From contig JBHLRO010000005.1 in the NCBI GenBank assembly GCA_048882505.1, forward strand, positions 60,001 to 92,000: DNA of 32,000 bases, given 5' to 3'. The translations under genes and the position numbers were made by a program. Shown here piece after piece: positions 7,945 to 30,656 of the stretch (its first letter is position 1; every line of letters starts with the position of its first letter). Source of the stretch: Candidatus Thorarchaeota archaeon (GTDB lineage: Archaea; Asgardarchaeota; Heimdallarchaeia; Hodarchaeales; Hodarchaeaceae). The notes under the pieces were generated by a model that saw nothing but the letters and a program-made list of their open reading frames with translations, was not told the DNA's origin and did not search any database.

Positions 7945-8781
7945 ATGCGAGGCCATGACACTTTCAGTGGATACTCCACAAATAGCTTTATTTCTGCCGA
8001 TGCGCGATACGCTCAACTTCAAGATTGCCTTCGTTTCGGGATTACTCAGCTAGATGAACTGTTGGTAGGGGCGCTCCGACCTGGAAGCCTGGTACTCTTT
8101 TATGGAGAGTGGTCACGAGGAAGTTTGCGCAAATTCATCACTCAAATGACTGTTTCCTTATTATCTAGTAATCCCACAGTGGATATTGCCTTTGTAGATG
8201 GAGCGAACATATTTCCATATCATGATGTGTCATTAGAGGTCAGGAAGCAGGGATATGATCCGCTAAAATCACTGGATCGTATTCAATTGGCACGGGCGTT
8301 CAATTATCATCAAATCACCGAGATTGTTACAAAAAACCTTCCCCAACTGATACACGAACGGCCGACAATCCGATTAATCTTTGTTCCGCAAATTTCTTCC
8401 CAATATCTCTCCGAAGAGGCTGCGCAGTATCTCGCCTATGCGAAGCAACCCGCAATCGCCTCATTGGCCGAACTCAAGACTACAGTAGGAAAATTGAAGT
8501 CATTGGCACTCCAATATGATCTGGCTGTCATCACAACCGCTGAACCCGCCCCTCATTCTCGAAATAAGGCCTTGGGAGGAACATTTATCGCCCACGCCGC
8601 TACTACCGTAGTACGTGTCTCCCCTGACCCCGCTAGAGGTAGACAGGTGACAAACTATCGTTTCTTCCTCCAGCAAGACCCTGCTCACCCTGAGACAGTG
8701 GGTCAGATTAAGGCTCAACCCCTACGAATGGATCATCCCCTTACCTTAACCCGATTCCTTGATCCAGAAATAAAGGACTGA
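7945..8781 (+). CDS. Inactivated RecA/RadA-superfamily ATPase associated with PolB2
   Basis: FGITQLDELLVGALRPGSLVLFYG entry; Walker A degenerate (GEWSRGSL, no Lys); FVDGAN, IQLARAFNYHQ, GGTFIAHAA are RadA-like motifs. Confidence 0.85.
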   Translation: MRGHDTFSGYSTNSFISADARYAQLQDCLRFGITQLDELLVGALRPGSLVLFYGEWSRGSLRKFITQMTVSLLSSNPTVDIAFVDGANIFPYHDVSLEVRKQGYDPLKSLDRIQLARAFNYHQITEIVTKNLPQLIHERPTIRLIFVPQISSQYLSEEAAQYLAYAKQPAIASLAELKTTVGKLKSLALQYDLAVITTAEPAPHSRNKALGGTFIAHAATTVVRVSPDPARGRQVTNYRFFLQQDPAHPETVGQIKAQPLRMDHPLTLTRFLDPEIKD

Positions 8782-8787
8782 ATACAC

Positions 8788-9069
8788 ATGGGACGTACTC
8801 TCCCGTCATTTCGACGCATGCTCGAAAAAGAACGTTTTGAGTGGGAGCGGCACTTTGCTAGTCGTCTGCGTGGCATCGACAAGACGAGTTTTACTCAATT
8901 ATGGGAAAAGGCCTTTCAATTAGCCGATGCAGCCTCCGGTAACACTCGTCCTCTTGTTTACGACAATGTGGTCATGTCGATGTTAGTCAGCCAGCAATCC
9001 GAAATCCAGCGCTTGAAACAGAAAGTGAAACAATTGGAGGGGGGATCTGGTTCGTCTTCCAATCCCTAG
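8788..9069 (+). CDS. Small alpha-helical/coiled-coil PolB2-associated protein (arCOG07300-like)
   Basis: MGRTLPSFR N-terminus, C-terminal coiled coil, located between the RadA-like gene (6-bp gap) and polB2 (18-bp gap). Confidence 0.8.
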   Translation: MGRTLPSFRRMLEKERFEWERHFASRLRGIDKTSFTQLWEKAFQLADAASGNTRPLVYDNVVMSMLVSQQSEIQRLKQKVKQLEGGSGSSSNP

Positions 9070-9087
9070 ATGGCGTAATATAAGAAA

Positions 9088-11310
9088 ATGTCCCCCAAAT
9101 ACACAGCCTGGCTCCATGACATTACAGCAGCCGATTGGGGAGTCAACATGGTTTGGTTGACCGAGGAAGCTCCGATCCACACATTCTATCCTCTGACCGC
9201 TGAATTCTATATGACCAAAACCGATCGTGACACCATTGCGCAAGTGCTCTCCCATCCACACATCGAGGATGCCCAAGTCGTCTCACGATATCAGTCAATC
9301 CACGATTGGCAGATGGCCGATGTCCTCCAGATCCGAGTTAACCCGAAGAAACTTCAGCAGACCTATCACGATCTGCGACAACATTGGGATCCCTTTCTAT
9401 TTAATGCAGATTTAAGTCTCTATCAACAATTCTGCTTTCAAACCGAATTGTTTCCGTATGCGTACGCAGAAATCGAAGTAGAACGGGGGAAGCTGAAAAA
9501 CAACTGGCAGCTCCTTGAAACCTACGAACAGATGGACTACCGTTCTGTACCGTTTTCTCCCCTCTGGTTTCATCCGACCTTTGAGGAACCCGAGTTTCAA
9601 CGAGGTAAGATCACGGAGATTCGCAGCTGTCGTTCCGTTGTGGATGAAGCAGAAGAAGTAGTGGTATTCCAGGGTTCAGAAGATGAACTACTTCAAGATT
9701 TCTGTCAATATGTTCAGCAAGTTGACCCTGACATCCTGTTTACCAAGGGAGGAGATACATTCCTTCCTCTTATGGGACAAAGGGCCAGCATGAACGGACT
9801 TGGTTACCTGCGCCTGGGGCGTGGCCCTCGATCCCTGGTCAACTACACAAAGCGCCCCACCTTGCCACGGGGCCATACTTTCGTGTCCTACGGACGCGTC
9901 TACTATTCAGAACATGGTGTCTATACAGATGGCGGCCGCCACCATTATGATGTCGGGAACTCGTTCATGTGGGGGGATGGCAACATCGAAGGCATCCATG
10001 AACTAGTCCGCCTCGGTTGTAGCGATCCCCAGCGCATCGCTCGGGGTACTATCGGTACCACCCTGTCGGCAGTTCAAATGCGCACCGCTTATCTGTACAA
10101 AATCCTCATTCCGATGAGAAAAGCTGATGCAGAAGCATTCCGGCCTGCCTGGACAATGATGACTGATGTTGGAGGTTTGGTCTTCAGTCCTCGGGTGGGT
10201 TGGCATCGGAACGTGACCGAGTTTGATTTTCTTTCTATGTACCCAAACATCATGGTCTACCGGAATGTGTCCCCAGAAACTGTGAACTGTACCTGTTGTC
10301 CAGGCAAGCGTCCGGTCCCCCTCACACATCACCATGTGTGTGTAGAACGGCCGGGACTCATCAATTTATCCCTCAAAAACATCTTGAATCGACGGGCTTA
10401 CTTCAAGAAGCATCGGCATCAACAACACTATGAGCGGCGACAACAGGTGCTAAAATGGCTTTTAGTATGTTCATTCGGTTATACAGGCTATAGAAACGCT
10501 CGATTTGGGCGTATTGAGGCTCATGAAGCGATTTCGGCATTTAGTCGTGATGCCTTAACCCAAACCCAGCACATAGCAGCTGATTTCGGCCTTCAAGTAC
10601 TTGCGGGGATTGTAGACTCAATTTGGGTGCAACGACCTGATAAAGAACGTCTGGATGAAGCAACAATCGACCAAATGCTTCGTCGAATCGAGGAAGTAGT
10701 TGATCTTCCTATTGAGCATGCAGCCGACTACCACTGGATTGTGTTCCTTCCTCGTCGTCATGAACCAGCTATCGGTGTGTTAAACCGGTACTATGGCTTA
10801 CGAAGTGACGGGACATTCAAGGTGCGGGGTATTGAGATTCGTCAGTCCTCAAGTCCTTTGATCTGCAAAAAAATGCAAGAGGAAATCCTTCATCTGCTGA
10901 GTAAGGTACGGACACGTTCCCAATTCCGAACCCAGCTCAGGTGTGCCAAAAAAATCCTCCAAGATTATTTGGACCGTTTAGGATCAGGGGACATCCCTCT
11001 TGAAGATCTTACGATTTCTATTCGCCCCTCTCGATCACCTGAAGAATATGTCAGCAATACTCGAACTGCAATTGCTGCACTCCAATTGGCCCGTTCGGAC
11101 GTCAAAGTGGAAGCTGGAATGAAGCTTCGTTATGTCATTCTCGATGCGCAGGCCCAGGACTCTATGGAACGGGTTCGCCCCGTCCAACTTCTCAAAGGCA
11201 ATGAACAATACGATGTGCAAGAGTATCAAAAACTTCTGAAACGCACTTACGAAAATTTAATCCCCCCAGAGTTAGAAGAAAAAAGACAGAATTTAAATCA
11301 ATTTTTTTGA
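9088..11310 (+). CDS. polB2: Family B DNA polymerase, PolB2 group
   Basis: Motif A DFLSMYP, motif B KWLLVCSFGYTGY, motif C GIVDS (PolB2-type replacement of DTD), KVRGIE; exonuclease motifs eroded; operon context typical of PolB2. Confidence 0.92.
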   Translation: MSPKYTAWLHDITAADWGVNMVWLTEEAPIHTFYPLTAEFYMTKTDRDTIAQVLSHPHIEDAQVVSRYQSIHDWQMADVLQIRVNPKKLQQTYHDLRQHWDPFLFNADLSLYQQFCFQTELFPYAYAEIEVERGKLKNNWQLLETYEQMDYRSVPFSPLWFHPTFEEPEFQRGKITEIRSCRSVVDEAEEVVVFQGSEDELLQDFCQYVQQVDPDILFTKGGDTFLPLMGQRASMNGLGYLRLGRGPRSLVNYTKRPTLPRGHTFVSYGRVYYSEHGVYTDGGRHHYDVGNSFMWGDGNIEGIHELVRLGCSDPQRIARGTIGTTLSAVQMRTAYLYKILIPMRKADAEAFRPAWTMMTDVGGLVFSPRVGWHRNVTEFDFLSMYPNIMVYRNVSPETVNCTCCPGKRPVPLTHHHVCVERPGLINLSLKNILNRRAYFKKHRHQQHYERRQQVLKWLLVCSFGYTGYRNARFGRIEAHEAISAFSRDALTQTQHIAADFGLQVLAGIVDSIWVQRPDKERLDEATIDQMLRRIEEVVDLPIEHAADYHWIVFLPRRHEPAIGVLNRYYGLRSDGTFKVRGIEIRQSSSPLICKKMQEEILHLLSKVRTRSQFRTQLRCAKKILQDYLDRLGSGDIPLEDLTISIRPSRSPEEYVSNTRTAIAALQLARSDVKVEAGMKLRYVILDAQAQDSMERVRPVQLLKGNEQYDVQEYQKLLKRTYENLIPPELEEKRQNLNQFF

Positions 11311-19111: not shown

Positions 19112-20737
19112 TCAGAGCGTTTTTCTTCGTTTTCGTAAGGTTAGCAAGCCAATAATAAGAACACTTGCAATTATGAATGTCACTTGAGGAACAGGAGTAG
19201 TAGAAGACGTTATAGTTGTCGAGGAGGTTCCCATAGCTTCATGTTCTTCATCGACGTAAACATTCATCTGCCTAGGATCGGAATTGACCTGAAATCCACC
19301 CCTTTCAAGTTCTTCTTTGGTTAACCTAAACCAGACACCGAACGATTCTTCTGAAACGGTTTTTTCAGTATTCTCTGGATCCAGGGAACGCGTATCTTGA
19401 TATCCAATTTCAGATGAAGCTCTCATTAGGACGTTCTTTGCGGCCCAGTAATCAAGCGCTACTGGATCTTTGCCCGCTATAAGGATATTTACTCTCGTCG
19501 CAAGTTCAAATGCAGTAGAAGGGCCTTGGAATGAACTGGGGTAGGGATTAGCATTAATCCAAATTGCATCTATAATACTTAGAACGGGAAGTCCGCATTC
19601 CACCATTAGAGTTCCCAACCCTCCTGTCGCTACTGACCTATGACCGTTTGCTAAACCTCCAGTATTCGCTTCTCCTTCCGATTGAACTCCCATATAGTTT
19701 TTTAAAGCTCCTGTTACTCCATAAACGAAATGAGATTTCAGCACAGGGAGATTTATTGTTTTTAATCGAGTCTCGTAGGCATTTCCATTCCATATGCCAT
19801 GTTTCAAACTGATATTCGTACCAAACGATGTTTTGAACTTGGGATAAGAAACTTTAATTCCCGTTTCTGCGTCAGCGGTTTCATTTAGGTAATATCCGTC
19901 TATCGTGTCACCATCAGAGTACTCCTGAACCTGATGTCCTCTGATAGCCTGCCAGTCATAAGTCGAAACTCTATGGGTTACTGAATATAAATCTACGACA
20001 TCTTGGGCGGACTGAGAGCGGTTTTCTGCATTATTTTGAGTCCAATCTAAATTTCCACGACCTTGACCATTGTCGGCAACCACAATTTCTCCTGTGAATT
20101 CATCGGGGTGGTCAATAATTGCCTGTATAATTTCTTTCAAGAGATCAGTATTTGTACCCCCACGATATGGCCATTGTGCATTAATCTTCAGCACTACCAC
20201 ATCATTACTTGCAATTAGTCCATCTGGCCCTTGGTTCTCTTTTGTTTCAGAGGACTTGTAAAAAACGAGACCCTGAGAACCCATCAGGTTCACTAGACGA
20301 TCAATGTTTGCAGCCTTTCTGCCATTGACCACAAATATGTTTGATGCTGGGGGGATAGTCGCAGTTTGAGAATTCAGGGTTAATTGTATCTCCTGAAAAG
20401 GTTTAGGTTCTGCGGTCCTTAGAAATATTCCTCCACTGATTATTCCAATAAGAAGCATGGAGAGAATTATTGTACTATTCTTGGAAAAGAAATCCTTGAC
20501 CATCATGGCAAACGAGGTAGCTAGTGAGACTGGAGTAATAACAGATAGAGTAAACGAAAAATTCGATAAAGCCGTCCGTTGACAAGGGTAATTTATTCTT
20601 GTAGGTTTTAATCCTGTCCTAAAAATAAGCCAAAACAGGTTCATTAACCCGAACGCTATGAAATTTCTTCTTAGTGTTTGTTTCTTATCATTTTTTGGGA
20701 TAGAAAGAGGGAAAGGGGACTTCTTCCAAGAAGACAT
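19112..20737 (-). CDS. DUF362-domain protein with N-terminal membrane segments and C-terminal CTERM-like anchor
   Basis: FWLIFRTGLKPTRINYPCQ, VVLKINAQW, GEIVVADNGQG, INLPVLKSH, VTGALKNYMG, DPVALDYWA; tail S/T linker-TPVP-hydrophobic helix-RKRRK. Confidence 0.85.
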   Translation of the reverse strand: MSSWKKSPFPLSIPKNDKKQTLRRNFIAFGLMNLFWLIFRTGLKPTRINYPCQRTALSNFSFTLSVITPVSLATSFAMMVKDFFSKNSTIILSMLLIGIISGGIFLRTAEPKPFQEIQLTLNSQTATIPPASNIFVVNGRKAANIDRLVNLMGSQGLVFYKSSETKENQGPDGLIASNDVVVLKINAQWPYRGGTNTDLLKEIIQAIIDHPDEFTGEIVVADNGQGRGNLDWTQNNAENRSQSAQDVVDLYSVTHRVSTYDWQAIRGHQVQEYSDGDTIDGYYLNETADAETGIKVSYPKFKTSFGTNISLKHGIWNGNAYETRLKTINLPVLKSHFVYGVTGALKNYMGVQSEGEANTGGLANGHRSVATGGLGTLMVECGLPVLSIIDAIWINANPYPSSFQGPSTAFELATRVNILIAGKDPVALDYWAAKNVLMRASSEIGYQDTRSLDPENTEKTVSEESFGVWFRLTKEELERGGFQVNSDPRQMNVYVDEEHEAMGTSSTTITSSTTPVPQVTFIIASVLIIGLLTLRKRRKTL

Positions 20738-20910: not shown

Positions 20911-21800
20911 TCAAACAATGGAGAATTCTTTGATTAAGTTGGCTGTCATTTCTGGAATAACTGGATTCCCGACAACCAATGTGGCACCTCGTTGGCGAAG
21001 AAGATGAATTTTTGAACGAAGATTCTCTGATGTGAGGATATATTCTCGAATATGTCTCCTCAATACTTGTTGCTCAATTTCCTTGTAAGATTTCCCGTTA
21101 ACTTCACCTTGATCTCTCTTTAGTTCATTTAATGATTGTTGTACCAATTTGCGACGCAGTAAATAATTTTTAACCTTCTGAGTCTGTAGTACATCCGATT
21201 CACTTAATGTGTGGGCGATCGGGGAATATATTGCAATCTGATTTCCATTGCTGTCCCCCTCTCCGTTTCTTTTGTACACTCGGGCGTCACCGTGAAGATA
21301 GAACGGAATCACTCTTCCGAACTTATTTTGAATATTATCAATGAGAGAAGATGATAGATTTTCTGCGCCTAGGTATAATTCCGCGTCGAAATTTTGTCTA
21401 ACTTGTGTAAATATTTTGTAGAAGGCGTCTTGTAGCGGAATTCTTCTGTTTATCGTATCATAGGCGGGGTGCCCTGCCACAATGCAGAAGCCGAGATTCG
21501 AGAATACCTGGATCAGATTGAGGTATTCAAATAACCCGTTATCTGAGTAGAAGTACTCATCCCTTGCTGCAACGGTAAGCACCAAGGTGTTTTCCATGCT
21601 TTGAAGGATGCTCTTTAATTCTTCAGCAGATAGAAGGTTGTCTCGTCCCTCGTAATCTATGAAGACATACTGATGATGCCGGTCGGACAACTGAATCGCA
21701 CTTAAAAAACTTTCAAAAGAAGAGAAGTGTGTGCGTTTCAGCGCTATACCAGTGTGTTTTTTCGACTGGTCAGTTGAATAAGCCAGGAACTAAATCCCAC
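20911..21800 (-). CDS. Uncharacterised archaeal (beta/alpha)-barrel protein (recalled as DUF7388-like), with a -1 frameshift near its 5' end
   Basis: Motifs IDYEGR, VAGHPAY, IYSP...YLLRR, VVGNP match a haloarchaeal family as I recall it. The main frame stays open upstream of the tracked TTG (21690) through GIALK to a TAG at 21790-21792; the SD-preceded GTG at 21800 is in another frame. Confidence 0.6.
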
Positions 21801-21924: not shown

Positions 21925-23388
21925 CTACCATGGTTTCGAATTGCTGAAGTCATAGGTTTTACTGATCTCTATATTCCACTTAATTACCCCTTGTCTCATA
22001 TTGACTTTTGGGATATATCCATGATCGATCAATTGGATCCAAACACCATAAAAATCAACAAACCAAGAAGATGGAAACCAAAGTAGTCCCGCCAGTAAGG
22101 GCCTAGTATCGGTATCCATTTTGCTTTCATTATAAAACAGCCAGCTAAACGGGAAGAATTTTAAATGTTCTACGATGTTGTTAAGTAAGTTATAGTCATT
22201 ATTTCCTTCTGATCCAATCAAAGTGATCCAAACTTTCGAATCAAGCCCCATATGTCCAATCTGTAAAAACCGAGTTATCAATTCCGTTTCCATAAATAGC
22301 TCAAAATACTCTTGAACATATTTTGGGGTTATACCTAGGGTTTTACTAATATGTTTATTAGCTATTGCTTCTACTTGGAGAAGATCCAACATTTTTGCTT
22401 GAACTTTTGAGATCTTAAGCGCTGTCAGATCATTAAATAGGTTCTGTTCAATACCACTATCTTCTGAAAGGACTATATCGCTCCATTGTTCCCCAATAAA
22501 AATGGGGGGATAGATTTTCCAGCGATCAGCGGTGGAGGGTTTGAGTCCGCTCAAATTCCACCCTAGAAAGCTTTTGGTGAGCGCAATTTCATAGACAGGC
22601 CTATAAAATTCCCTTATGCTACTTAACAGTATTTTATTTGTAAAAGGAATTTGAAAAATCTTAATCTTTGCAACTTTCTTTCCCCAATCAATAGGAATAT
22701 CCGCCAAACAGAATGGTTTGAACGAAGGGGGGAGATTTTCAAACTTATCCTTGTGTATAATTGCGAAACTATTATAACCAAGCTTGGCCAGATCTACTCT
22801 GTATTTCTGAGTAAACATAGCCCTATTGGCCAAATAATTAATCCTACGCGAGATGGTGTTTTCGCTGCAGCGAATTAATCGAGCCAGCTGACGATTTGAT
22901 GGAAAAACAGGGATTTTATCCTTTATTAGTTGATTCGTCAACGTCGTAATGATTCTTACATCGTTTCTCAACAAAGGGAGGTTTAATACTCGCTGAATTT
23001 TATTGAGCGTAAAGAAGAATGAATTAGGGCTCCTTGCTTTTTTTAGTTGGTCTATAATGTCAGTTTCAGGTTGTAAGTTCAAGTAAATCAAAAACCGATG
23101 GGGAAGCAGAATCTTTGTACTGAGATATTCGAGCATAAATGAACGGTAATTTTGGTTATACTCGGAATTCCATGAAATAAGGTTTAAATCTGCCCATTTG
23201 CCGTAGAAAGGTTTTGTATAATCTTTATACAGCTTTTCGCATATCTTATTTATCTCGTTGGCATCTTTTGGAATGAAACGTTTTATGATCTCGAGGTAGT
23301 CAACGAGATCTTTGAAGAAGAGATCATATTCGATTTCACTACTTAAATCCTCTCTACTCTGTATGTAAAAAGGTTGCTGTTGAAACAT
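21925..23388 (-). CDS. Large regulator with two tandem Lrp/AsnC-like (wHTH + effector domain) units
   Basis: HTH1 SNRQLARLIRCSENTISRRINYL + linker VDLAKLGY; HTH2 ANKHISKTLGITPKYVQEYF + linker IGHMGL. Confidence 0.75.
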   Translation of the reverse strand: MFQQQPFYIQSREDLSSEIEYDLFFKDLVDYLEIIKRFIPKDANEINKICEKLYKDYTKPFYGKWADLNLISWNSEYNQNYRSFMLEYLSTKILLPHRFLIYLNLQPETDIIDQLKKARSPNSFFFTLNKIQRVLNLPLLRNDVRIITTLTNQLIKDKIPVFPSNRQLARLIRCSENTISRRINYLANRAMFTQKYRVDLAKLGYNSFAIIHKDKFENLPPSFKPFCLADIPIDWGKKVAKIKIFQIPFTNKILLSSIREFYRPVYEIALTKSFLGWNLSGLKPSTADRWKIYPPIFIGEQWSDIVLSEDSGIEQNLFNDLTALKISKVQAKMLDLLQVEAIANKHISKTLGITPKYVQEYFELFMETELITRFLQIGHMGLDSKVWITLIGSEGNNDYNLLNNIVEHLKFFPFSWLFYNESKMDTDTRPLLAGLLWFPSSWFVDFYGVWIQLIDHGYIPKVNMRQGVIKWNIEISKTYDFSNSKPW

Positions 23389-23490
23389 CAGCTAACCGCC
23401 GTACATTTTTGGCGAATCAAGTGCACTGCACTACAAGCAGGAGCATACAATTTAAAAGTTGTGATATCAAATAGAAGGGCCATCCAATTG

Positions 23491-23535
23491 TATCATGATA
23501 TGATTTCACTATTTTTTCGCGAAAAGCTGTGAAAT
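23491..23535. promoter_or_regulatory. Palindrome cluster in the divergent promoter (candidate operator)
   Basis: TATCATGATA (23491-23500), TTTTCGCGAAAA (23514-23525) flanked by ATTTCAC (23503-23509) and GTGAAAT (23529-23535). Confidence 0.45.
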
Positions 23536-23591
23536 GGTTTTCGTTACTACTTTTTCTATATAGCTTCAAGCGAGTAAGGGGAGGTGTTAAA

Positions 23592-23726
23592 TTGAACCTA
23601 AAACAATACTTTCCCAGCCGTCTTAGATTAATACAAGCTATACCGCTTTTAATCTGGATTACACTTCTTTTTATAAGCGTTGTAGCAAGTACAGCTCCTC
23701 CTGGAGACAATGCGGGTGGTGCCTAG
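23592..23726 (+). CDS. 44-aa signal-peptide-like micropeptide (putative secreted peptide precursor)
   Basis: Strong SD GGGGAGGTG (23578-23586) 5 nt before TTG; MNLKQYFPSRLRLIQAIPLLIWITLLFISVVASTAPPGDNAGGA. The ORF-track start at 23529 is less likely. Confidence 0.55.
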   Translation: MNLKQYFPSRLRLIQAIPLLIWITLLFISVVASTAPPGDNAGGA

Positions 23727-23761
23727 GATCCAGGGATCCCTCAGGATGTAGAACCAAAAAC

Positions 23762-24052
23762 ATGTGGAAACCAACTGAAATTTTCGAGGACGTAGGAATT
23801 CAACTCCTACTCCTTCCGATATTTTTATTTGAGGATTTTTCAGTTTTAGATGACTCCGTACAGTTAACTCTAAAAGCAGAATATCATCCGCCCTATATCA
23901 AACGTCTCCTCAGTCTAATATCTCTTGCGACAGGCCATTCATTCTACATGAAGAAGAAGCAGAACGAAGATATCTTACATTTGTATTGTTCTGATAATCC
24001 CAAATTGTTTAGGTTGCTTATCCAAAGCATGGGCAGAAGTGAAAAGATCTGA
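23762..24052 (+). CDS. Hypothetical 96-aa protein
   Basis: ATG ORF 35 bp after the micropeptide; no family recognised. Confidence 0.5.
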   Translation: MWKPTEIFEDVGIQLLLLPIFLFEDFSVLDDSVQLTLKAEYHPPYIKRLLSLISLATGHSFYMKKKQNEDILHLYCSDNPKLFRLLIQSMGRSEKI

Positions 24053-24201
24053 TATTTTCAGAAAAGGAACTGAAAATCACCCGTTGATTCGTCCCAAAGA
24101 AATTAAGGAGCACTGAAGAGGAATCTAAACAACCAGGAAGAAATGTGCATGTATTGGCGCGGTACGGTATTTGTGAAAATCCCTGATCAAGGAGAAGGAG
24201 A

Positions 24202-24645
24202 ATGATTCAAAACATCCTGTTAATTCACGAAACGGGCTTTGGATTAGTATCACGGTCATATGGGGACGATTCGAAGGATCTCGATCTATTTGGTGGATTG
24301 TTAGCCGCCATCTCAAGTTTTGCGGAAAACCTCATGGGAGATGCAATCAACGAAATTCGAATGGATCACCATAATATCTTCTATGAATCGGAACAGGGTG
24401 TGGTTTTGGCCATAATCACACCTAAGAGAACCATATCCAGACGAAAAATATCTGCAATAATGAGGAAGATTCACTCGAACTTTTTGGAAAGATATTCTGA
24501 ATATCTACGTCAAGATTTCTTAGAACCAAAAAACTTTGAGGAATTCTCATTTGAAATAGATAGCATTTTACGGAAGAATGGAGTTCTCGGGACAAAAAGT
24601 TCTCCTGTCAAGGAGAAAATTATTTCAACACTTAAACAAAAATAG
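24202..24645 (+). CDS. Longin-like domain protein (Asgard eukaryotic-signature type)
   Basis: MIQNILLIHETG...SRSY, DLFGGLLAAISSFAENL, INEIRM, IFYE, KIHSNFLERY; SD AAGGAG upstream. Confidence 0.8.
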   Translation: MIQNILLIHETGFGLVSRSYGDDSKDLDLFGGLLAAISSFAENLMGDAINEIRMDHHNIFYESEQGVVLAIITPKRTISRRKISAIMRKIHSNFLERYSEYLRQDFLEPKNFEEFSFEIDSILRKNGVLGTKSSPVKEKIISTLKQK

Positions 24646-24699
24646 GTGATAATAACTTAATAAAATAACTCCCAAAAAACGATATCGAGCTGTTGTAGC

Positions 24700-25584
24700 A
24701 TGAAAGGATTAGAAGGCGTTTGTTCGATGCCCGACCTTGGACAAATCGGGGACCAGCCTTTTAATCCGTATGCAATTGTTTCTCCACAAGATAATACGAT
24801 ACTCTTTTACTCTCAAGCATTCGCGCAGGTAAGCAAATTTCACCCCTCCACGGATCCCATATTTCGATCTGGGTTTCAAAAGACCCATCTCGAACTCAAA
24901 CAAACCAAGTTGAACGATTGTTATAATTTTCTGCAATGTTTAAACACTGTCTATCGATACAGAACCAGCTTGGTCGAGACGATAATACACGAGTTAAGGA
25001 CGGCAAGTCTGGCCATTAGTTTAGGAGCATACGCATTCGCCTTAGATGAACAAGTGGCACCCCTGATATTAGGTAGAATATTACAGGCATCGCACAGACA
25101 AAAAATTTCGACATTGATCGCCTCCGATATAATTCAATTGATTACTGCCCCTCCCATAACACATCCGACCTGCCTTACTAGAATTATTAAGGGAAGTCTT
25201 TCTCATTTTCCGCTTTTGCTTCAGATGAACTTTAGCTTGGGCTCAATGGTAAAAACAAATACCGTAGAACATGTTAATCCAGCCATTTGGGGGAATCCTG
25301 GATTTTTAGAACATTTTTTTGATACCATTTTTTCGTGGCTGGAAATGGAGGATGTTATGGTAGAGATGGAAATAGTTAACCCTGTTACCGTCAAGGTGTG
25401 CATTAGAATTCCACCAGATCAGTTCCTCCCGTCTATTCAAGGATTTCGCATGATATCTCATTATATTGAATATGTTATTGCTTATTTCAATGGACGTTCG
25501 TGGGTAGACCAGACTTCAATAAACATACTATTCCCTCTCTGTCAGAACTACTGGATGAACCGTCCTGATAAAAATAGTTCATGA
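24700..25584 (+). CDS. Degenerate histidine-kinase-like protein (PAS-like start, H-box, eroded HATPase domain)
   Basis: H-box IIHELRT (His at 24988-24990); N-terminal AIVSPQDNTILFYSQAF; C-terminal layout follows the GHKL fold but N/G1/G2 boxes are missing. Confidence 0.6.
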   Translation: MKGLEGVCSMPDLGQIGDQPFNPYAIVSPQDNTILFYSQAFAQVSKFHPSTDPIFRSGFQKTHLELKQTKLNDCYNFLQCLNTVYRYRTSLVETIIHELRTASLAISLGAYAFALDEQVAPLILGRILQASHRQKISTLIASDIIQLITAPPITHPTCLTRIIKGSLSHFPLLLQMNFSLGSMVKTNTVEHVNPAIWGNPGFLEHFFDTIFSWLEMEDVMVEMEIVNPVTVKVCIRIPPDQFLPSIQGFRMISHYIEYVIAYFNGRSWVDQTSINILFPLCQNYWMNRPDKNSS

Positions 25585-25737: not shown

Positions 25738-26901
25738 CTATACCAGGTTGCCACGCTCCTCTTGTTCTCGTTCAAGAGATTCGAAAAGAGCCTGAAAATT
25801 ACCTTTTCCGAATCCTTGTGAACCTTTCCGCTGAATTACTTCGAAGAAGAAGGTGGGTCGGTCTTGGATTGGCCTGCTAAACAGTTGTAATAGATAGCCA
25901 TGTTCATCTCGATCAACCAGGATTCCATGTTTAGCTAAATCCTTCAAGTTTTCATCAATTTCACCGACTCGATCGAGAACTGTGTCATAATAGGTCTGCG
26001 GTACGTGGAGAAAATCTACCCCGTTACCGCGCATCATGCCAATCGTACTGAGGATATCCTGGGTCAGGAAGGCGATGTGCTGGACACCTGCACCATGATA
26101 ATAATTGACATATTCTTCAATCTGAGACATGCGTATTCCATCGGCAGGCTCGTTTATTGGCATTTTCACCTTATCGTTAAAGTTTTTCACAACTTTTGAA
26201 CGAAGAGCCGAGTATTTTGTAGCAATGTCTTTCTCTGTAAACTCTATAAATTCGCCAAAACCGAAAACATCATGATAAAATTTTACCGTTGAATCCATCT
26301 TGCCTAATGGCTGGTTTCCGACAACATGATCAATTCTTTTGAGTCCTGCCTTCGGAGTATCAATTATGGGTTCAATGGGTTGATATCCAGGAAGATATGG
26401 GCCATCATAACCGTCACGTTCTATGAACTTGTGGTTTACATCTCCATATGTCTGTACGATAGCATAACGGGCGGTTCCGTATTCATCCTTAATTTCAGTC
26501 GGTGCTGTGATCCCTTTACCACCTCTAGCAACACATTCCTCCCATGCAACTTCTAAATCACGGACTTGAAGCCCGATAACTTTTACTCCATCGCCATGCA
26601 TAAGGTGATGGGCCGCCATTTCGCTTGTTGGATGATAAGGCGCTGATAAAATTACCTTAGCGTCACCTTGTTGCATAACATAACTCGCAAAATCACGATT
26701 TCCTGTTTTAAGTGATGACCATGCGATAGGTCTGAAGCCGAGTCCGTGCTGGAAATAATAAGCACTTTGTTTCGCATTTCCTACCCAAAACTCCATTGCA
26801 TCAAAATCAGTAACAGTAAGGATATCCGTCGCTTGCTTCATATTTTCAGCTGGGGATGACCTCCGTTTTGTATCCTCACGTTGAACTGTTGCCTGTTTCA
26901 T
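25738..26901 (-). CDS. hppD: 4-hydroxyphenylpyruvate dioxygenase
   Basis: EFWVGNAKQ, HGDGVK, IDHVVGN, SALRSKVV, PINEPA, SQIEEY, GVQHIA, GYLLQLF, FFEVIQRKG, GFGKGNFQALFES; His/His/Glu iron ligands present. Confidence 0.97.
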   Translation of the reverse strand: MKQATVQREDTKRRSSPAENMKQATDILTVTDFDAMEFWVGNAKQSAYYFQHGLGFRPIAWSSLKTGNRDFASYVMQQGDAKVILSAPYHPTSEMAAHHLMHGDGVKVIGLQVRDLEVAWEECVARGGKGITAPTEIKDEYGTARYAIVQTYGDVNHKFIERDGYDGPYLPGYQPIEPIIDTPKAGLKRIDHVVGNQPLGKMDSTVKFYHDVFGFGEFIEFTEKDIATKYSALRSKVVKNFNDKVKMPINEPADGIRMSQIEEYVNYYHGAGVQHIAFLTQDILSTIGMMRGNGVDFLHVPQTYYDTVLDRVGEIDENLKDLAKHGILVDRDEHGYLLQLFSRPIQDRPTFFFEVIQRKGSQGFGKGNFQALFESLEREQEERGNLV

Positions 26902-27088
26902 TTTTTTTCATCATCCTGTTAAGTTTTTCAAACATCCCTGGATCTTCTAGTTCCTAATCTTAGAAAGAAGATTAGCATCATGGAAGCAGTTTTTAGGTTG
27001 TTTAAAATTGTAATTAGCAGACTTTCGAAATTGGTCATGGTATATTTTTAAATCATCTTAGAATGCTTATTAATTGGACGTACATTCT

Positions 27089-27123
27089 TTATTGAGTCAA
27101 TAAGCTTTGAAAAAAGTTTTAAG
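27089..27123 (+). promoter_or_regulatory. 7-1-7 palindrome followed by a BRE/TATA-like element upstream of hmgA
   Basis: TTATTGA-G-TCAATAA (27089-27103), then GAAAAAAGTTTTAAG; SD GGTGAGG before the ATG at 27141. Confidence 0.45.
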
Positions 27124-27140
27124 TTGCAATTGGTGAGGTT

Positions 27141-28289
27141 ATGCCTGAAAAGAAATTCACTACAGTATTCCCTTTGGTGAGGGGTAAAACTAGCAAACAA
27201 GCACATGCTGATTTACCAAAATATAATGAAAACACCACTTTTGAGGAAGAGCATGGAAGAAAGGGATTTTTCGGAAAAGTTTCTCATTTATACCATATTC
27301 ATCCTCCAACTGGTTGGATCAACATTGACGGACCACTTAAGCCAGAACTTCTGGATACAAACCTTCTGGAACCTAATGGTTCGAACGATGTATGGAGCAC
27401 GCCTACCGTCCTGATGCAAAATTCGGATGTCAAATTGAAAGTTTCCAAACGTTCTGGACCGATGCCGTATTATTTTCGCAATTCGGAAGGCGATGACCTA
27501 TGGTTTGTCCATCAAGGAAAGGGAACCATCGAAACAACCTATGGTCCTTTGGAGTTCGATCAGGGAGATTATATCGTAATTCCGAGGGGAACCATGTACA
27601 GAGTCGTTCCTGAAACTAAAAATAATCATTTTTTGGTGATCGAATCTAGATCGGAGATCGAAATACCCGATAGAGGGATGTTAGGTCCTAATGCTTTGTT
27701 TGATCCCGCAGTTATAGAGACTCCAGAGCCCGCTCCAATAATTAACTCTGATAAAAAGGATTGGATTGTCCGAGTCAAACGTAATGATCAATATACTGAT
27801 TTCACTTTTCCTTATAATCCAATTGATGTCATTGGCTGGAAAGGAGATGTAACGCCATGGAAACTAAACATTCACGATTTTCGCCCGATTATGTCCCATA
27901 GATACCATTTACCTCCTTCAGCACATACAACATTCCTCAGTTCTACGGGGAGTTTTGTTATCTGTTCATTTGTTCCCAGGCCATTTGAAACGGAAGAATC
28001 GGCGATAAAAGTTCCTTTTCATCATTCAAATGTTGATTATGATGAAATAATCTTTTATCATGATGGTAATTTCTTCTCAAGGGATAATATTAGCTCTGGT
28101 ATGATAACATTTCACCCGTGCGGATTTACGCATGGCCCACATCCCAAGGCCCTAACTAAGATGTTTAAGCAAAATAAAACAATGACAGATGAATATGCAG
28201 TAATGCTTGATACAAAAAATCCCATGGAATTAACTCCTGAAGGAAGAGGAGTTGCCAATCCAGATTACTGGAAGTCTTGGATGAGCTAA
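27141..28289 (+). CDS. hmgA: Homogentisate 1,2-dioxygenase
   Basis: EEEHGRKGFFG, FRNSEGDDLWFVHQGKG, GDYIVIPRG, HYHLPPS-like HRYHLPPSAH, HSNVDYDE, HPCGFTHGPH, YAVMLDT. Confidence 0.93.
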   Translation: MPEKKFTTVFPLVRGKTSKQAHADLPKYNENTTFEEEHGRKGFFGKVSHLYHIHPPTGWINIDGPLKPELLDTNLLEPNGSNDVWSTPTVLMQNSDVKLKVSKRSGPMPYYFRNSEGDDLWFVHQGKGTIETTYGPLEFDQGDYIVIPRGTMYRVVPETKNNHFLVIESRSEIEIPDRGMLGPNALFDPAVIETPEPAPIINSDKKDWIVRVKRNDQYTDFTFPYNPIDVIGWKGDVTPWKLNIHDFRPIMSHRYHLPPSAHTTFLSSTGSFVICSFVPRPFETEESAIKVPFHHSNVDYDEIIFYHDGNFFSRDNISSGMITFHPCGFTHGPHPKALTKMFKQNKTMTDEYAVMLDTKNPMELTPEGRGVANPDYWKSWMS

Positions 28290-28323
28290 ATAAGAGTCTT
28301 TTAGATCTAGGTTTGAAGGACCT

Positions 28324-29319
28324 ATGCTACGCAGCCTTTACTCATTCCTTCACACGAGTATTGATTATGCGGGAATCTATCCTCCCGCAAATCTTTCAAT
28401 AGAAATGGCCCTCCGAAAGTATTCAGAATATAGAAACATAGCTGAATCATGGATGCTAGCACGATTTGTAATTGGAACGCCGTTTTTACCTCAACTAGAG
28501 AACTTTGAAGAGATATTTCTTGCCCCGCCTAAATTTAGGTTCTCCATCCTAAATCAGAAGACTAAGAAACTGGAATCCTTCCCACAAACACTTGATTCCG
28601 ATATACAACAAGTTGAAACGTTCATTGAGAACTATAAATCGAATATCCAAATAGAATCTTTTGAGATTAGGCTTCCCGAAGCGGTCGGGCTCACTTCTGA
28701 TGAAAAAGCTATTCTGAACGTTCTAGATAGAACCATGAGCGTCGTTGAAGCAAGTAACCTGCCAAGGGATATTCAAATCTTCTTCGAGAGCACATATCCA
28801 GGCAATTGGAAGATTAAGCTAGAGAATGTACTCAATGGCCTTTCCACTTTGAATCATACATTAGCCAAAAAGTCGTATAATCCAAACAGAATCGGCTTCA
28901 AGATAAGAACCGGGGGCGAAACAAAGGCTTCGATTCCCTCAGTAGAGTTTGTATCGAGAGTCATATACGAGTGTGGTAGGCTTAATATTCCCCTTAAGGC
29001 AACAGCTGGACTTCACCATCCCTTAAGGCATTATGATATTGGATCGGATCAGATTCTGCATGGTTTTATTAATCTGATAGGAGCAGCGGTTCTGAATTAC
29101 GAGAACGAATTAACATTAGAGACGATTCAAAAGATCATTGAAACTGAGGACACCAATGATTTCGTTTTTGGGAATGGAGACTTTAGATGGAACAATTATG
29201 CAATTTCGGAGGTAAAAATTGCAGAGGCAAGACAAAGGACCTTTATTTCCTTCGGAAGTTGTGATTTCGATGATCCTCGTCTAGATCTCAAAAAACTTCA
29301 TTATAAACTACGCCCCTAA
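28324..29319 (+). CDS. Conserved hypothetical (beta/alpha)-barrel protein between hmgA and fahA
   Basis: [40 protein letters not shown]: a family I recall next to fahA/hmgA in bacteria; function unknown. Confidence 0.8.
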
Positions 29320-29357
29320 CTTACCTTAGAGCTATTGGCCCCAAAGGAAAGATTAAA

Positions 29358-30656
29358 ATGACTACATTGAAGGAAACTATAGATCCGAATTTACGCTCTT
29401 TTGTTTCTGTACCCGCAGATTCTCATTTTCCAATTCAAAATTTACCTTATGGTGTTTTTCAAGTTCAAAAACATCCGCCGCGTGTCGGAGTTGCTATTGG
29501 AGATCTGGTGCTCGATCTTGCAGAAATCGATCATCTTGGGTTTTTCCGCGATACGGTTTTGGAAGGATCGCATGCATTTGATCAGCCTTTTCTAAATAAA
29601 TTCATGTCTTTGGGAAGGGAGGCTTGGACTGAAGCACGAATTACAATTTCAGAAATCCTCAATATAGAAAATTCGGTCCTCCAAGATGACCTGGAACTGA
29701 GGAAACGGGTTCTTATACCTCAAGAAGAAGCCAATCTCCGTTTACCGGTCCAGATTGTTGACTACACTGATTTTTATTCATCAAAATACCATGCGTATAA
29801 CGTTGGAGTTATGTTTAGGGGAAAGGAAAATGCCTTGCAACCTAATTGGCTACATTTGCCTGTAGGTTATCACGGAAGGGCAAGTTCAGTTGTGGTAAGT
29901 GGGACATCCCTTCATCGACCACATGGGCAACTGAAATCAGATGAAGAAGATAACCCTAAACTGGGATCATGTAAACAACTGGATTACGAGCTAGAAATGG
30001 GATTCTTCATTGGTGTGGGGAATGATTTGGGAATCCCAATCCCAATAAAAGAAGCCGCCGAACACATCTTCGGAATGGTAATTGTAAACGATTGGAGTGC
30101 ACGAGACATTCAAAGATGGGAATATGTGCCATTGGGGCCCTTTTTGGGAAAGAGTTTTGGCACATCTATTTCCCCCTGGGTGGTTACTCTTGACGCATTA
30201 AGTCCGTTTAGAGTGGCCAATACTGAACAAAAGAATCCGACTCCATTACCTTACCTTCGATCCCCTGATAACTGGGGTTTAGATATCGAATTAGAAGTAT
30301 TTATAAAGACTAAAGCGTTGGAAAAACCGTTTCGTGCAGCTAAAACGAATTTAAAGTACCTTTACTGGAATATCCTCCAACAAGCAACGCATCATACAAT
30401 TAATGGCTGTAATCTTCAAACAGGGGATCTACTGGCCACGGGAACTCTAAGTGGACCGAATCCTGGATCTTATGGCTCCCTTCTTGAAACTTCTTGGAAA
30501 GGAACGAAATCATTAAAGCTTCCGAATGGCGAAACTCGAAAGTTTCTTGAAGATGGAGACCGTGTGATAATGACTGGTTGGTGTCAAGGACCAGGATATC
30601 GGGTTGGATTTGGCGAAGTAGTCACGGAATTATTATCCAGCCTTCCTTTAACCTAA
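29358..30656 (+). CDS. fahA: Fumarylacetoacetase (long, eukaryote-like type)
   Basis: [85 protein letters not shown]. Confidence 0.97.

Follow-up and report, generated by a model that had tools for sequence, protein, structure and literature searches.

The 32,000-nucleotide stretch analyzed here (the window), positions 60,001 to 92,000 of contig JBHLRO010000005.1, carries five genes that form a real, conserved and repeatedly duplicated cassette of one Hodarchaeales genus within the Asgard archaea. The source names of homologues assign the organism to Hodarchaeales, in Heimdallarchaeia. A 487-amino-acid (aa) regulator, REG, faces a divergently transcribed operon that opens with a micropeptide gene, PEP, and continues with a 96-aa protein, p96, a longin-like protein and a pseudo-histidine kinase, pk. 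What the window shows is a single copy of a regulatory module that is specific to this lineage and has been duplicated repeatedly; its invariable core is REG, PEP and p96, to which the subfamily found in the window adds the longin-like protein and pk. Functional linkage of the cassette genes, which a preliminary description of this DNA had left unproven, is well supported. The reading that we favor, at a probability of roughly 40%, is that PEP inserts into the membrane and is linked to REG, a tandem-Lrp output regulator, by way of p96, the longin-like protein and pk. The five open reading frames (ORFs) and the 203-bp spacer were recovered from the window ORF list exactly where the preliminary description had placed them:

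21925-23388, minus strand: REG, 487-aa regulator (ORF list)
23389-23591: divergent spacer of 203 bp, with promoters and candidate operator (sequence, shuffle test, alignment with two relatives, G016 and L070)
23592-23726, plus strand: PEP, 44-aa micropeptide (family alignment, substitution ratios, gene calls of the National Center for Biotechnology Information, NCBI)
23762-24052, plus strand: p96, 96 aa, no known family, third core member of the cassette (ORF list)
24202-24645, plus strand: longin-like protein, 147 aa (ORF list, sub-threshold Pfam match)
24700-25584, plus strand: pk, 294 aa, PAS-like domain, DHp and truncated CA-like domain, a pseudo-histidine kinase (ORF list, AlphaFold2 model)

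The linkage of these genes was assessed in about 70 loci, which were fetched and scanned with profiles and a hydrophobicity filter; G codes denote the genomes of relatives (G000 being the genome of the window itself), C codes contigs and L codes fetched loci, of which L070 is a Joint Genome Institute (JGI) contig. The REG loci comprise subfamily A, the close relatives of REG (profile E < 1e-85), and subfamily B, its distant paralogues. PEP adjoins REG in 24 of the 25 assessable subfamily A loci and in about 24 of 39 subfamily B loci, giving an adjacent micropeptide at about 48 of 64 REG loci overall, in 21 species of one genus; many of the peptide-less subfamily B loci are extra REG copies in tandem arrays. 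The two genes diverge in most loci, and in L027 and L028 PEP sits downstream of REG and is read in the same direction. When the genome of the window was searched with the peptide profiles, the 68,922 small frames yielded five strong hits, each of which abuts a REG gene. Homologues of the regulator thus do carry a micropeptide beside them, and the other neighbors are conserved together as well, the two points on which the preliminary description had proposed that its idea should stand or fall. Of the 25 subfamily A loci, 24 have p96 after PEP, 15 include pk in the cassette and at least 9 include the longin-like gene. At least 15 of the 23 full-length pk genes of the genus adjoin a REG gene, and the longin-like gene stands beside p96 or pk in G009, G017, G007, G019, G014, G011, G020, G021, G016 and L070. 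The possibility that the longin-like gene is a clade-specific insertion was rejected, as it occurs in the cassette of at least nine further genomes. In subfamily B, a related 94-aa protein and a winged-helix-like 148-aa protein replace p96 and its downstream partners. The genes of the operon are closely spaced or overlapping.

The REG family, with 2–11 copies per genome, has full-length members in each of the 21 other species of the genus; the rest of the class has distant, partial relatives only. A search of 1.84 billion representative proteins gave 289 REG relatives at E ≤ 1e-3, of which 61 reach E ≤ 1e-10 and 34 reach E ≤ 1e-30. In other Heimdallarchaeia families, distant REG-like proteins of about 490 aa have no adjacent PEP detectable with the filter used. 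pk is similarly confined, being present in 19 of 400 Asgard genomes and in 1 of the 85 genera sampled, and no component of the cassette reaches a Pfam threshold. Some copies depart from the common layout. In the genome of the window, G000:C14:65747-75370 holds four tandem REG paralogues but only one PEP (68966-69172), together with genes for a p96-like protein of 94 aa and a winged-helix-like protein of 148 aa; a longin-like ORF lies just past the array (at about 76.4–76.9 kb), and similar arrays occur in G020 (C234 and C126) and G004 (C14). Two weaker PEP-like ORFs of the same genome, G000:C7:21209-21430 (plus strand) and G000:C14:81887-82078 (minus strand), are orphans, with tails ending in ...N-P-A-G-G-P-I-P-P-R-T and no REG gene within about 4 kb; the C7 orphan lies near a gene for a small Ras-like GTPase. 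On G000:C1, a predicted actin-family (lokiactin-like) gene, L027:3279-4457 (minus strand), lies upstream of the REG paralogue at a distance of about 1.2 kb.

The small ORF of the window can be read in two ways, as 65 aa from a GTG at 23529 or as 44 aa from a TTG at 23592, with its end at 23726. The 44-aa reading is favored because of a ribosome-binding sequence close to the TTG,

23580-23586, plus strand: Shine-Dalgarno-like GGAGGTG, 5 nt upstream of the PEP TTG

and because the closest relative (86% identical) has ATG at the codon matching this TTG, the more distant relative L070 has an in-frame stop upstream of the 44-aa start codon, and the NCBI gene calls contain the exact 44-aa product. 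The start at 23592 therefore sets the length of the spacer at 203 bp. The same or a similar GGAGG precedes many PEP homologues. Ratios of nonsynonymous to synonymous substitution rates (dN/dS) are 0.26–0.37 in four subfamily A comparisons (0.26–0.29 among the window, G016 and L070) and 0.05–0.23 among subfamily B orthologues. PEP is a genuine gene, as seen from purifying selection, ribosome-binding sites and NCBI calls in several genomes. It is not an unannotated one, since NCBI lists it as a hypothetical protein in G016 and other genomes. The four other genes are likewise under constraint, with dN/dS values of 0.04–0.21 against G016, p96 standing at 0.04.

The PEP sequences have a basic N-terminal region (net charge +2 to +8), about 20 uncharged residues and a tail of 8–17 aa, which in the window is the 11-residue, proline-rich TAPPGDNAGGA. 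In the subfamily A alignment (n = 25), the peptides are 44–56 aa long and have K-P-x-K in the N-region, 20 uncharged residues and a tail of the form G-[IV]-A-[DP]-P...P-P; in 14 of the 25 sequences, the flanking K/R and D-P stand exactly 20 uncharged residues apart, and the span is free of indels. Subfamily B peptides read M-x-K-x-R-N-R...D-V-E-L-x-L-L-K, followed by L-L-P-W-L-F... and a tail ending in D, and their mean identity is 44% in the N-region versus 28% in the tail. Because of the positive-inside rule and the charge of the N-region, PEP would be targeted to the membrane in an N-in/C-out orientation. Three other functions for this short sequence fared poorly. An arrest leader acting through polyproline (SecM/MifM-like) is unlikely, because a hydrophobic segment 8–17 residues before the stop is still inside the ribosome tunnel and cannot be pulled. 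An archaeal prepilin signal was rejected, as no G or A precedes the hydrophobic segment. It was also rejected that the GG at the C terminus of PEP encodes a ribosome-binding site for p96, since most loci have another 30–55 nt before p96 starts; such a site is conceivable for the 94-aa protein of subfamily B.

The AlphaFold2 model of REG, built on 30 homologues (predicted local distance difference test (pLDDT) score 86.9, predicted template modeling score 0.84), reveals an N-terminal region of about 135 aa with an unassigned fold, followed by two tandem Lrp/AsnC-like modules at residues ~136–280 and ~323–480, each consisting of a winged helix-turn-helix (wHTH) and a beta-alpha-beta-beta-alpha-beta RAM domain. 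Foldseek ranks NirDL (4ch7/4czc), a siroheme decarboxylase with fused Lrp-like modules, first, with E 1.6e-8, and many Lrp/AsnC regulators next. With VIA-align, 268 residues of NirDL 4czc (Z 13.9) align to residues 141–480 of REG, and Lrp/AsnC proteins align to residues 323–480 with Z of 6.6–7.3. The characterization of REG as a double-Lrp protein is thus right at the level of the fold. In terms of sequence, only sub-threshold HTH matches were obtained from Pfam (residues 155–195): the HTH_AsnC-type match stays below the gathering cut-off (E 0.021, 15.1 bits versus 27), and AsnC_trans_reg gives no match. The first recognition helix is conserved, with T178 invariant and R181/R182 kept at 90% or more, and the model makes of REG a predicted DNA-binding-like protein. 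Neither the model nor the two fold searches reveal a TPR-like helical repeat or any other known peptide-binding domain. Co-folding of REG with PEP, run without controls, gave a score of 0.00, which speaks neither for nor against binding.

The spacer between REG and PEP contains five 8-bp palindromes, compared with 1.0 expected from 1000 dinucleotide shuffles (P ~0.003), and six inverted repeats with 6-nt arms, compared with 1.9 expected (P ~0.03). The view of this spacer as palindrome-rich is moderately supported. Only two elements are kept in the two diverged relatives:

23444-23468: block CATACAATTTAAAAGTTGTGATATC with the symmetric TATA-like AATTTAAAA, largely conserved in G016 and L070
23503-23535: inverted repeat ATTTCAC-N17-GTGAAAT with conserved outer arms, a candidate REG operator (repeat search)

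AATTTAAAA may act as a TATA box in both directions. Across three diverged loci (window, G016 and L070), the inverted repeat keeps its outer arms and its inner bases drift without compensation, a pattern more in keeping with a protein-binding site than with an RNA hairpin. The motif has 6 sites in its own genome versus 3 expected; it is not rare genome-wide, and its weight comes from positional conservation. Inverted repeats of the form TTCACCAT...ATGGTGAA, which resemble the candidate operator of the window, occur at L022:8951 and L025:1706, close to the orthologous cassettes of G009 and G019 but not within them; they could be further targets of the regulator. In subfamily B spacers, a TATA-like CATTTAAA stands some 30 nt from the start of REG and is followed by a motif close to TCTAGAGAAA-N3-TCCGGAT, which is common to L045, L047-L050, L055, L057, L062-L064 and L079 and occurs twice in G000:C14. 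This second motif is a candidate operator for the whole family. In each of the two subfamilies, the spacer motifs are conserved.

The three remaining proteins of the operon can be placed to different degrees. p96 has no Pfam match and no sequence match in the PDB, and the candidates that it is a stand-alone RAM domain or a second longin were rejected, with hhalign probabilities of 0.3% against REG and 1.3% against the longin family. The 147-aa protein matches Pfam Longin with E 1.2e-3, under the cut-off, and of 13 homologues six match Longin (best E 5e-4), five Fuz_longin_1 (2e-4) and two Intu_longin_1, always below threshold. The label "longin-like" therefore stands in part: the matches fall consistently within the Longin clan, and all of them lie below the gathering threshold. 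PDB sequence searches with the longin-like protein and with pk gave no useful match.

The AlphaFold2 model of pk (pLDDT 79.5) folds into a PAS-like domain, a two-helix DHp (residues 89–149) and a short alpha/beta CA-like domain of about 125 aa, and Foldseek retrieves the kinases and kinase relatives WalK, HK853, DivL and RetS at E 3e-8 to 1e-6. The H-box I-H-E-L-R-T, with H97, is invariant in 31 sequences. As read from the alignment of these sequences, there are no N, G1 or G2 boxes, no DxGxG or GxGxG, and no conserved Asn in the first helix of the CA-like domain; none of the 31 members matches HisKA or HATPase_c in Pfam, and the pk profile matches no kinase in the PDB. These observations bear out the proposal of a His-retaining pseudo-kinase, with a DHp fold and an invariant histidine in the absence of ATP boxes. 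The bacterial-type phosphorelay that had been suggested along with it finds no support as a working pathway, since the cassette lacks an ATP-binding motif, a receiver domain and a response regulator, and no gene for a response regulator or receiver domain occurs among the conserved cassette neighbors. A second clade of pk relatives (profile E ~1e-80; L067, L068, L069, L081 and L082) has no REG, PEP or p96 within about 4.5 kb.

In the model that we favor, REG would bind the conserved inverted repeat in the spacer and control both promoters. PEP, encoded by the first gene of the divergently transcribed operon, would insert into the membrane N-in/C-out, with its basic N-region in the cytoplasm, its 20-residue span crossing the bilayer and its 11-aa Pro-rich tail outside, and it would remain there as a membrane-proximal element for sensing or anchoring. 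The state of PEP would be passed on to REG by three cytoplasmic adaptors, p96, the longin-like protein and pk, through protein contacts and not by phosphorylation; pk is without ATP-binding motifs and REG is without a receiver domain. The presence of three cytoplasmic partners in the same operon counts for a stable anchor. The constant 20-residue span, the conserved N-region of subfamily B and the conserved tail of subfamily A fit a membrane anchor at least as well as they fit a pheromone.

Several observations weigh against a peptide that stays in the membrane. The hydrophobic core of PEP is 13–17 residues long and is followed by small residues (e.g., S-L-G or V-A-S), which resembles cleavable Sec signal peptides, and in two homologues position 14 of the span is occupied by R or K. 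In L033, L034, L038, L040 and L043, a short G+C hairpin and/or a run of 7–10 T directly follows the PEP stop, before p96, which suggests that partial termination may yield a separately abundant peptide transcript. Among the parts of the subfamily A peptides, conservation is highest in the tail (38% mean identity) and lowest in the N-region (19%); the tail would therefore have a function outside that an anchor leaves unexplained.

The alternative with the best claim to these observations, in line with the signaling idea of the preliminary description, is that PEP is a Sec pre-peptide from which signal peptidase frees the tail of 8–17 aa (TAPPGDNAGGA in the window), and that this pheromone accumulates outside, is re-imported or sensed and alters the activity of REG in the manner of Rap/Phr, PlcR/PapR or AimR/AimP, with the paralogous REG-PEP pairs of each genome serving as separate channels. 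The n-h-c layout of PEP, its short core and the small residues before its tail suit this proposal, and the charged residue in the span of two homologues suits a c-region better than a membrane helix, but a span of constant length and a conserved N-region are unnecessary for a signal peptide. The terminator-like T-runs after PEP in several loci also speak for it. Similarly, the pairing of regulator and pre-peptide is kept across the family, at 2–11 REG copies per genome, and subfamily B orthologues combine a nearly invariant leader with a variable tail; across subfamily A paralogues, however, the tail is the best conserved part, which argues against channel specificity encoded there. In terms of gene content, the proposal fits less well: neither a TPR nor any other known peptide-binding domain is present in REG, RRNPP systems have nothing that corresponds to the three cytoplasmic proteins of the operon, and no importer or processing gene belongs to the cassette. 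We consider a secreted pheromone doubtful, and we think it unlikely that the REG-PEP pairs represent the first archaeal peptide-based cell–cell signaling, with a tandem-Lrp receptor-regulator in place of a TPR protein and several channels per genome.

Lrp/AsnC regulators commonly control divergent neighboring operons and bind small ligands through their RAM domains. Given this usual behavior and the fold match of REG, the regulator could be a plain local one, perhaps responsive to an amino acid or another metabolite, that switches on an operon with a membrane function and receives no feedback from PEP; the micropeptide and its helpers would then act on the envelope, a transporter or membrane organization. 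The tyrosine-catabolism genes beside the cassette in the window clade would agree with such a role, but the flanking metabolic genes vary between clades. The orphan PEP-like ORFs without a REG gene are also in its favor, whereas the REG-PEP pairing outlasts duplication and rearrangement (divergent versus same-strand), beyond what is expected of a simple regulator and its target, and the accessory folds (PAS-DHp and longin-like) are of a signaling type. This explanation, too, is improbable in our judgment. That PEP is a small membrane-damaging toxin silenced by REG, in a selfish, toxin–antitoxin or defense module whose fast-evolving family reflects conflict, would account for the multiple copies and tandem arrays within one genus and for a small hydrophobic peptide the size of type I toxins, but it is very improbable in view of PADLOC and PHROGs searches without a match beyond an HTH-only hit (E 0.008), the housekeeping setting (DNA polymerase B, HisRS, glycogen synthase), the synteny of orthologous loci across species, purifying selection on all five genes and the lack of an integrase or transposase in the loci examined.

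The layout of the cassette is reminiscent of the RRNPP systems (Rap/Phr, PlcR/PapR, NprR/NprX and AimR/AimP), in which the gene of a cytoplasmic regulator lies beside an ORF of ~40–55 aa with a basic N-region and a hydrophobic segment and in which several diverged pairs can occur per genome. It differs from them in the fold of its regulator (tandem wHTH and RAM modules versus TPR), in its three extra cytoplasmic partners and in its archaeal host. MgrB and SafA are small membrane proteins that act on PhoQ in enterobacteria. With these the cassette shares the logic of a single-span peptide of ~45–65 aa that is encoded with or controlled by the system it modulates; the kinase-like partner here is soluble and without ATP-binding motifs, and there is no sequence relation. 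The cassette thus resembles RRNPP pairs and MgrB-type modulators in logic and is a member of neither.

The individual proteins also have known counterparts. Lrp proteins are about 150 aa long and are assembled from separate chains. REG shares with Lrp/AsnC proteins and with NirDL/AhbAB (4czc, 4czd) the order of wHTH and then RAM, and with NirDL the fusion of two modules in one chain; it differs from Lrp/AsnC proteins in its 487 aa, with two fused modules and an extra ~135 aa at the N terminus, and in a similarity below Pfam thresholds. Unlike NirDL/AhbAB, REG does not stand in a context of haem d1 or alternative haem biosynthesis, its neighbors being PEP, p96, the longin-like protein, pk, a DUF7388 protein and tyrosine catabolism. 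DivL (4q20) and RetS (6dk7), both among the Foldseek matches of pk, likewise use a DHp and CA-like fold as a protein-interaction module, but pk keeps the H-box histidine, has a shorter CA-like domain (~125 aa) with no lid and shows no sequence match to kinases. The longin-like protein recalls longin and roadblock platforms (MON1-CCZ1, FUZ-INTU, MglB and Ragulator) in its small domain of ~140 aa and its sub-threshold Longin, Fuz_longin_1 and Intu_longin_1 matches; in contrast to these, no GTPase gene belongs to the cassette, and the protein is one of many longin-like paralogues in these genomes. The cassette falls outside RRNPP, Lrp/AsnC and histidine kinases because its regulator has no TPR, differs from Lrp/AsnC in sequence and architecture, and is accompanied by a kinase-like protein without ATP boxes or kinase sequence similarity.

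Hodarchaeales have been reported as the archaeal lineage closest to eukaryotes, and to our knowledge almost nothing is known of their sensing and regulation. The cassette offers a concrete, testable pair of regulator and micropeptide in this lineage. PEP, p96 and the N-terminal domain of REG match nothing, and REG, pk and the longin-like protein are recognizable only by fold or by sub-threshold matches; the 44-aa ORF, labeled "hypothetical protein," is among the best-conserved members of the module. If the peptide were released, it would define a new class of peptide signaling, the first in Archaea; if it stays in the membrane, it would define a new coupling of a micropeptide to an Lrp-type transcription factor. 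What the cassette offers is a transcription factor with an adjacent small-peptide gene, and the chance that this is a new kind of peptide signaling is small. Literature searches, within the library covered, gave no account of the REG-PEP cassette family, in line with its designation as undescribed, and a survey of quorum-sensing genes in archaeal genomes lists six systems only, none of them peptide-based (PMC12781772).

The surroundings of the cassette in the window are housekeeping genes, which include a family-B DNA polymerase, a RadA-like protein, glycogen synthase and HisRS. On the pk side, a tyrosine-degradation cluster (25738-30656) adjoins the cassette:

25738-26901, minus strand: 4-hydroxyphenylpyruvate dioxygenase (HPPD; TIGR01263, E 9e-126)
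27141-28289, plus strand: homogentisate 1,2-dioxygenase
28324-29319: unassigned 331-aa protein of the cluster
29358-30656: fumarylacetoacetase

The same tyrosine-degradation neighborhood is found again in G016 and L070. Rfam and tRNA scans identified no Rfam families and no tRNAs in the window. Positions 8001-11000 have a G+C content of 0.48–0.49, compared with ~0.40 elsewhere, and this G+C-rich stretch spans the RadA/Rad51-like gene (7945-8781) and the family-B DNA polymerase gene (9088-11310). Directly downstream of REG, the window encodes a 541-aa membrane-anchored DUF362 protein (19112-20737, minus strand). The DUF7388 protein (20911-21690, minus strand) has a 38%-identical paralogue on contig C19. 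Both genes are kept in G016, but elsewhere they lie outside the cassette.

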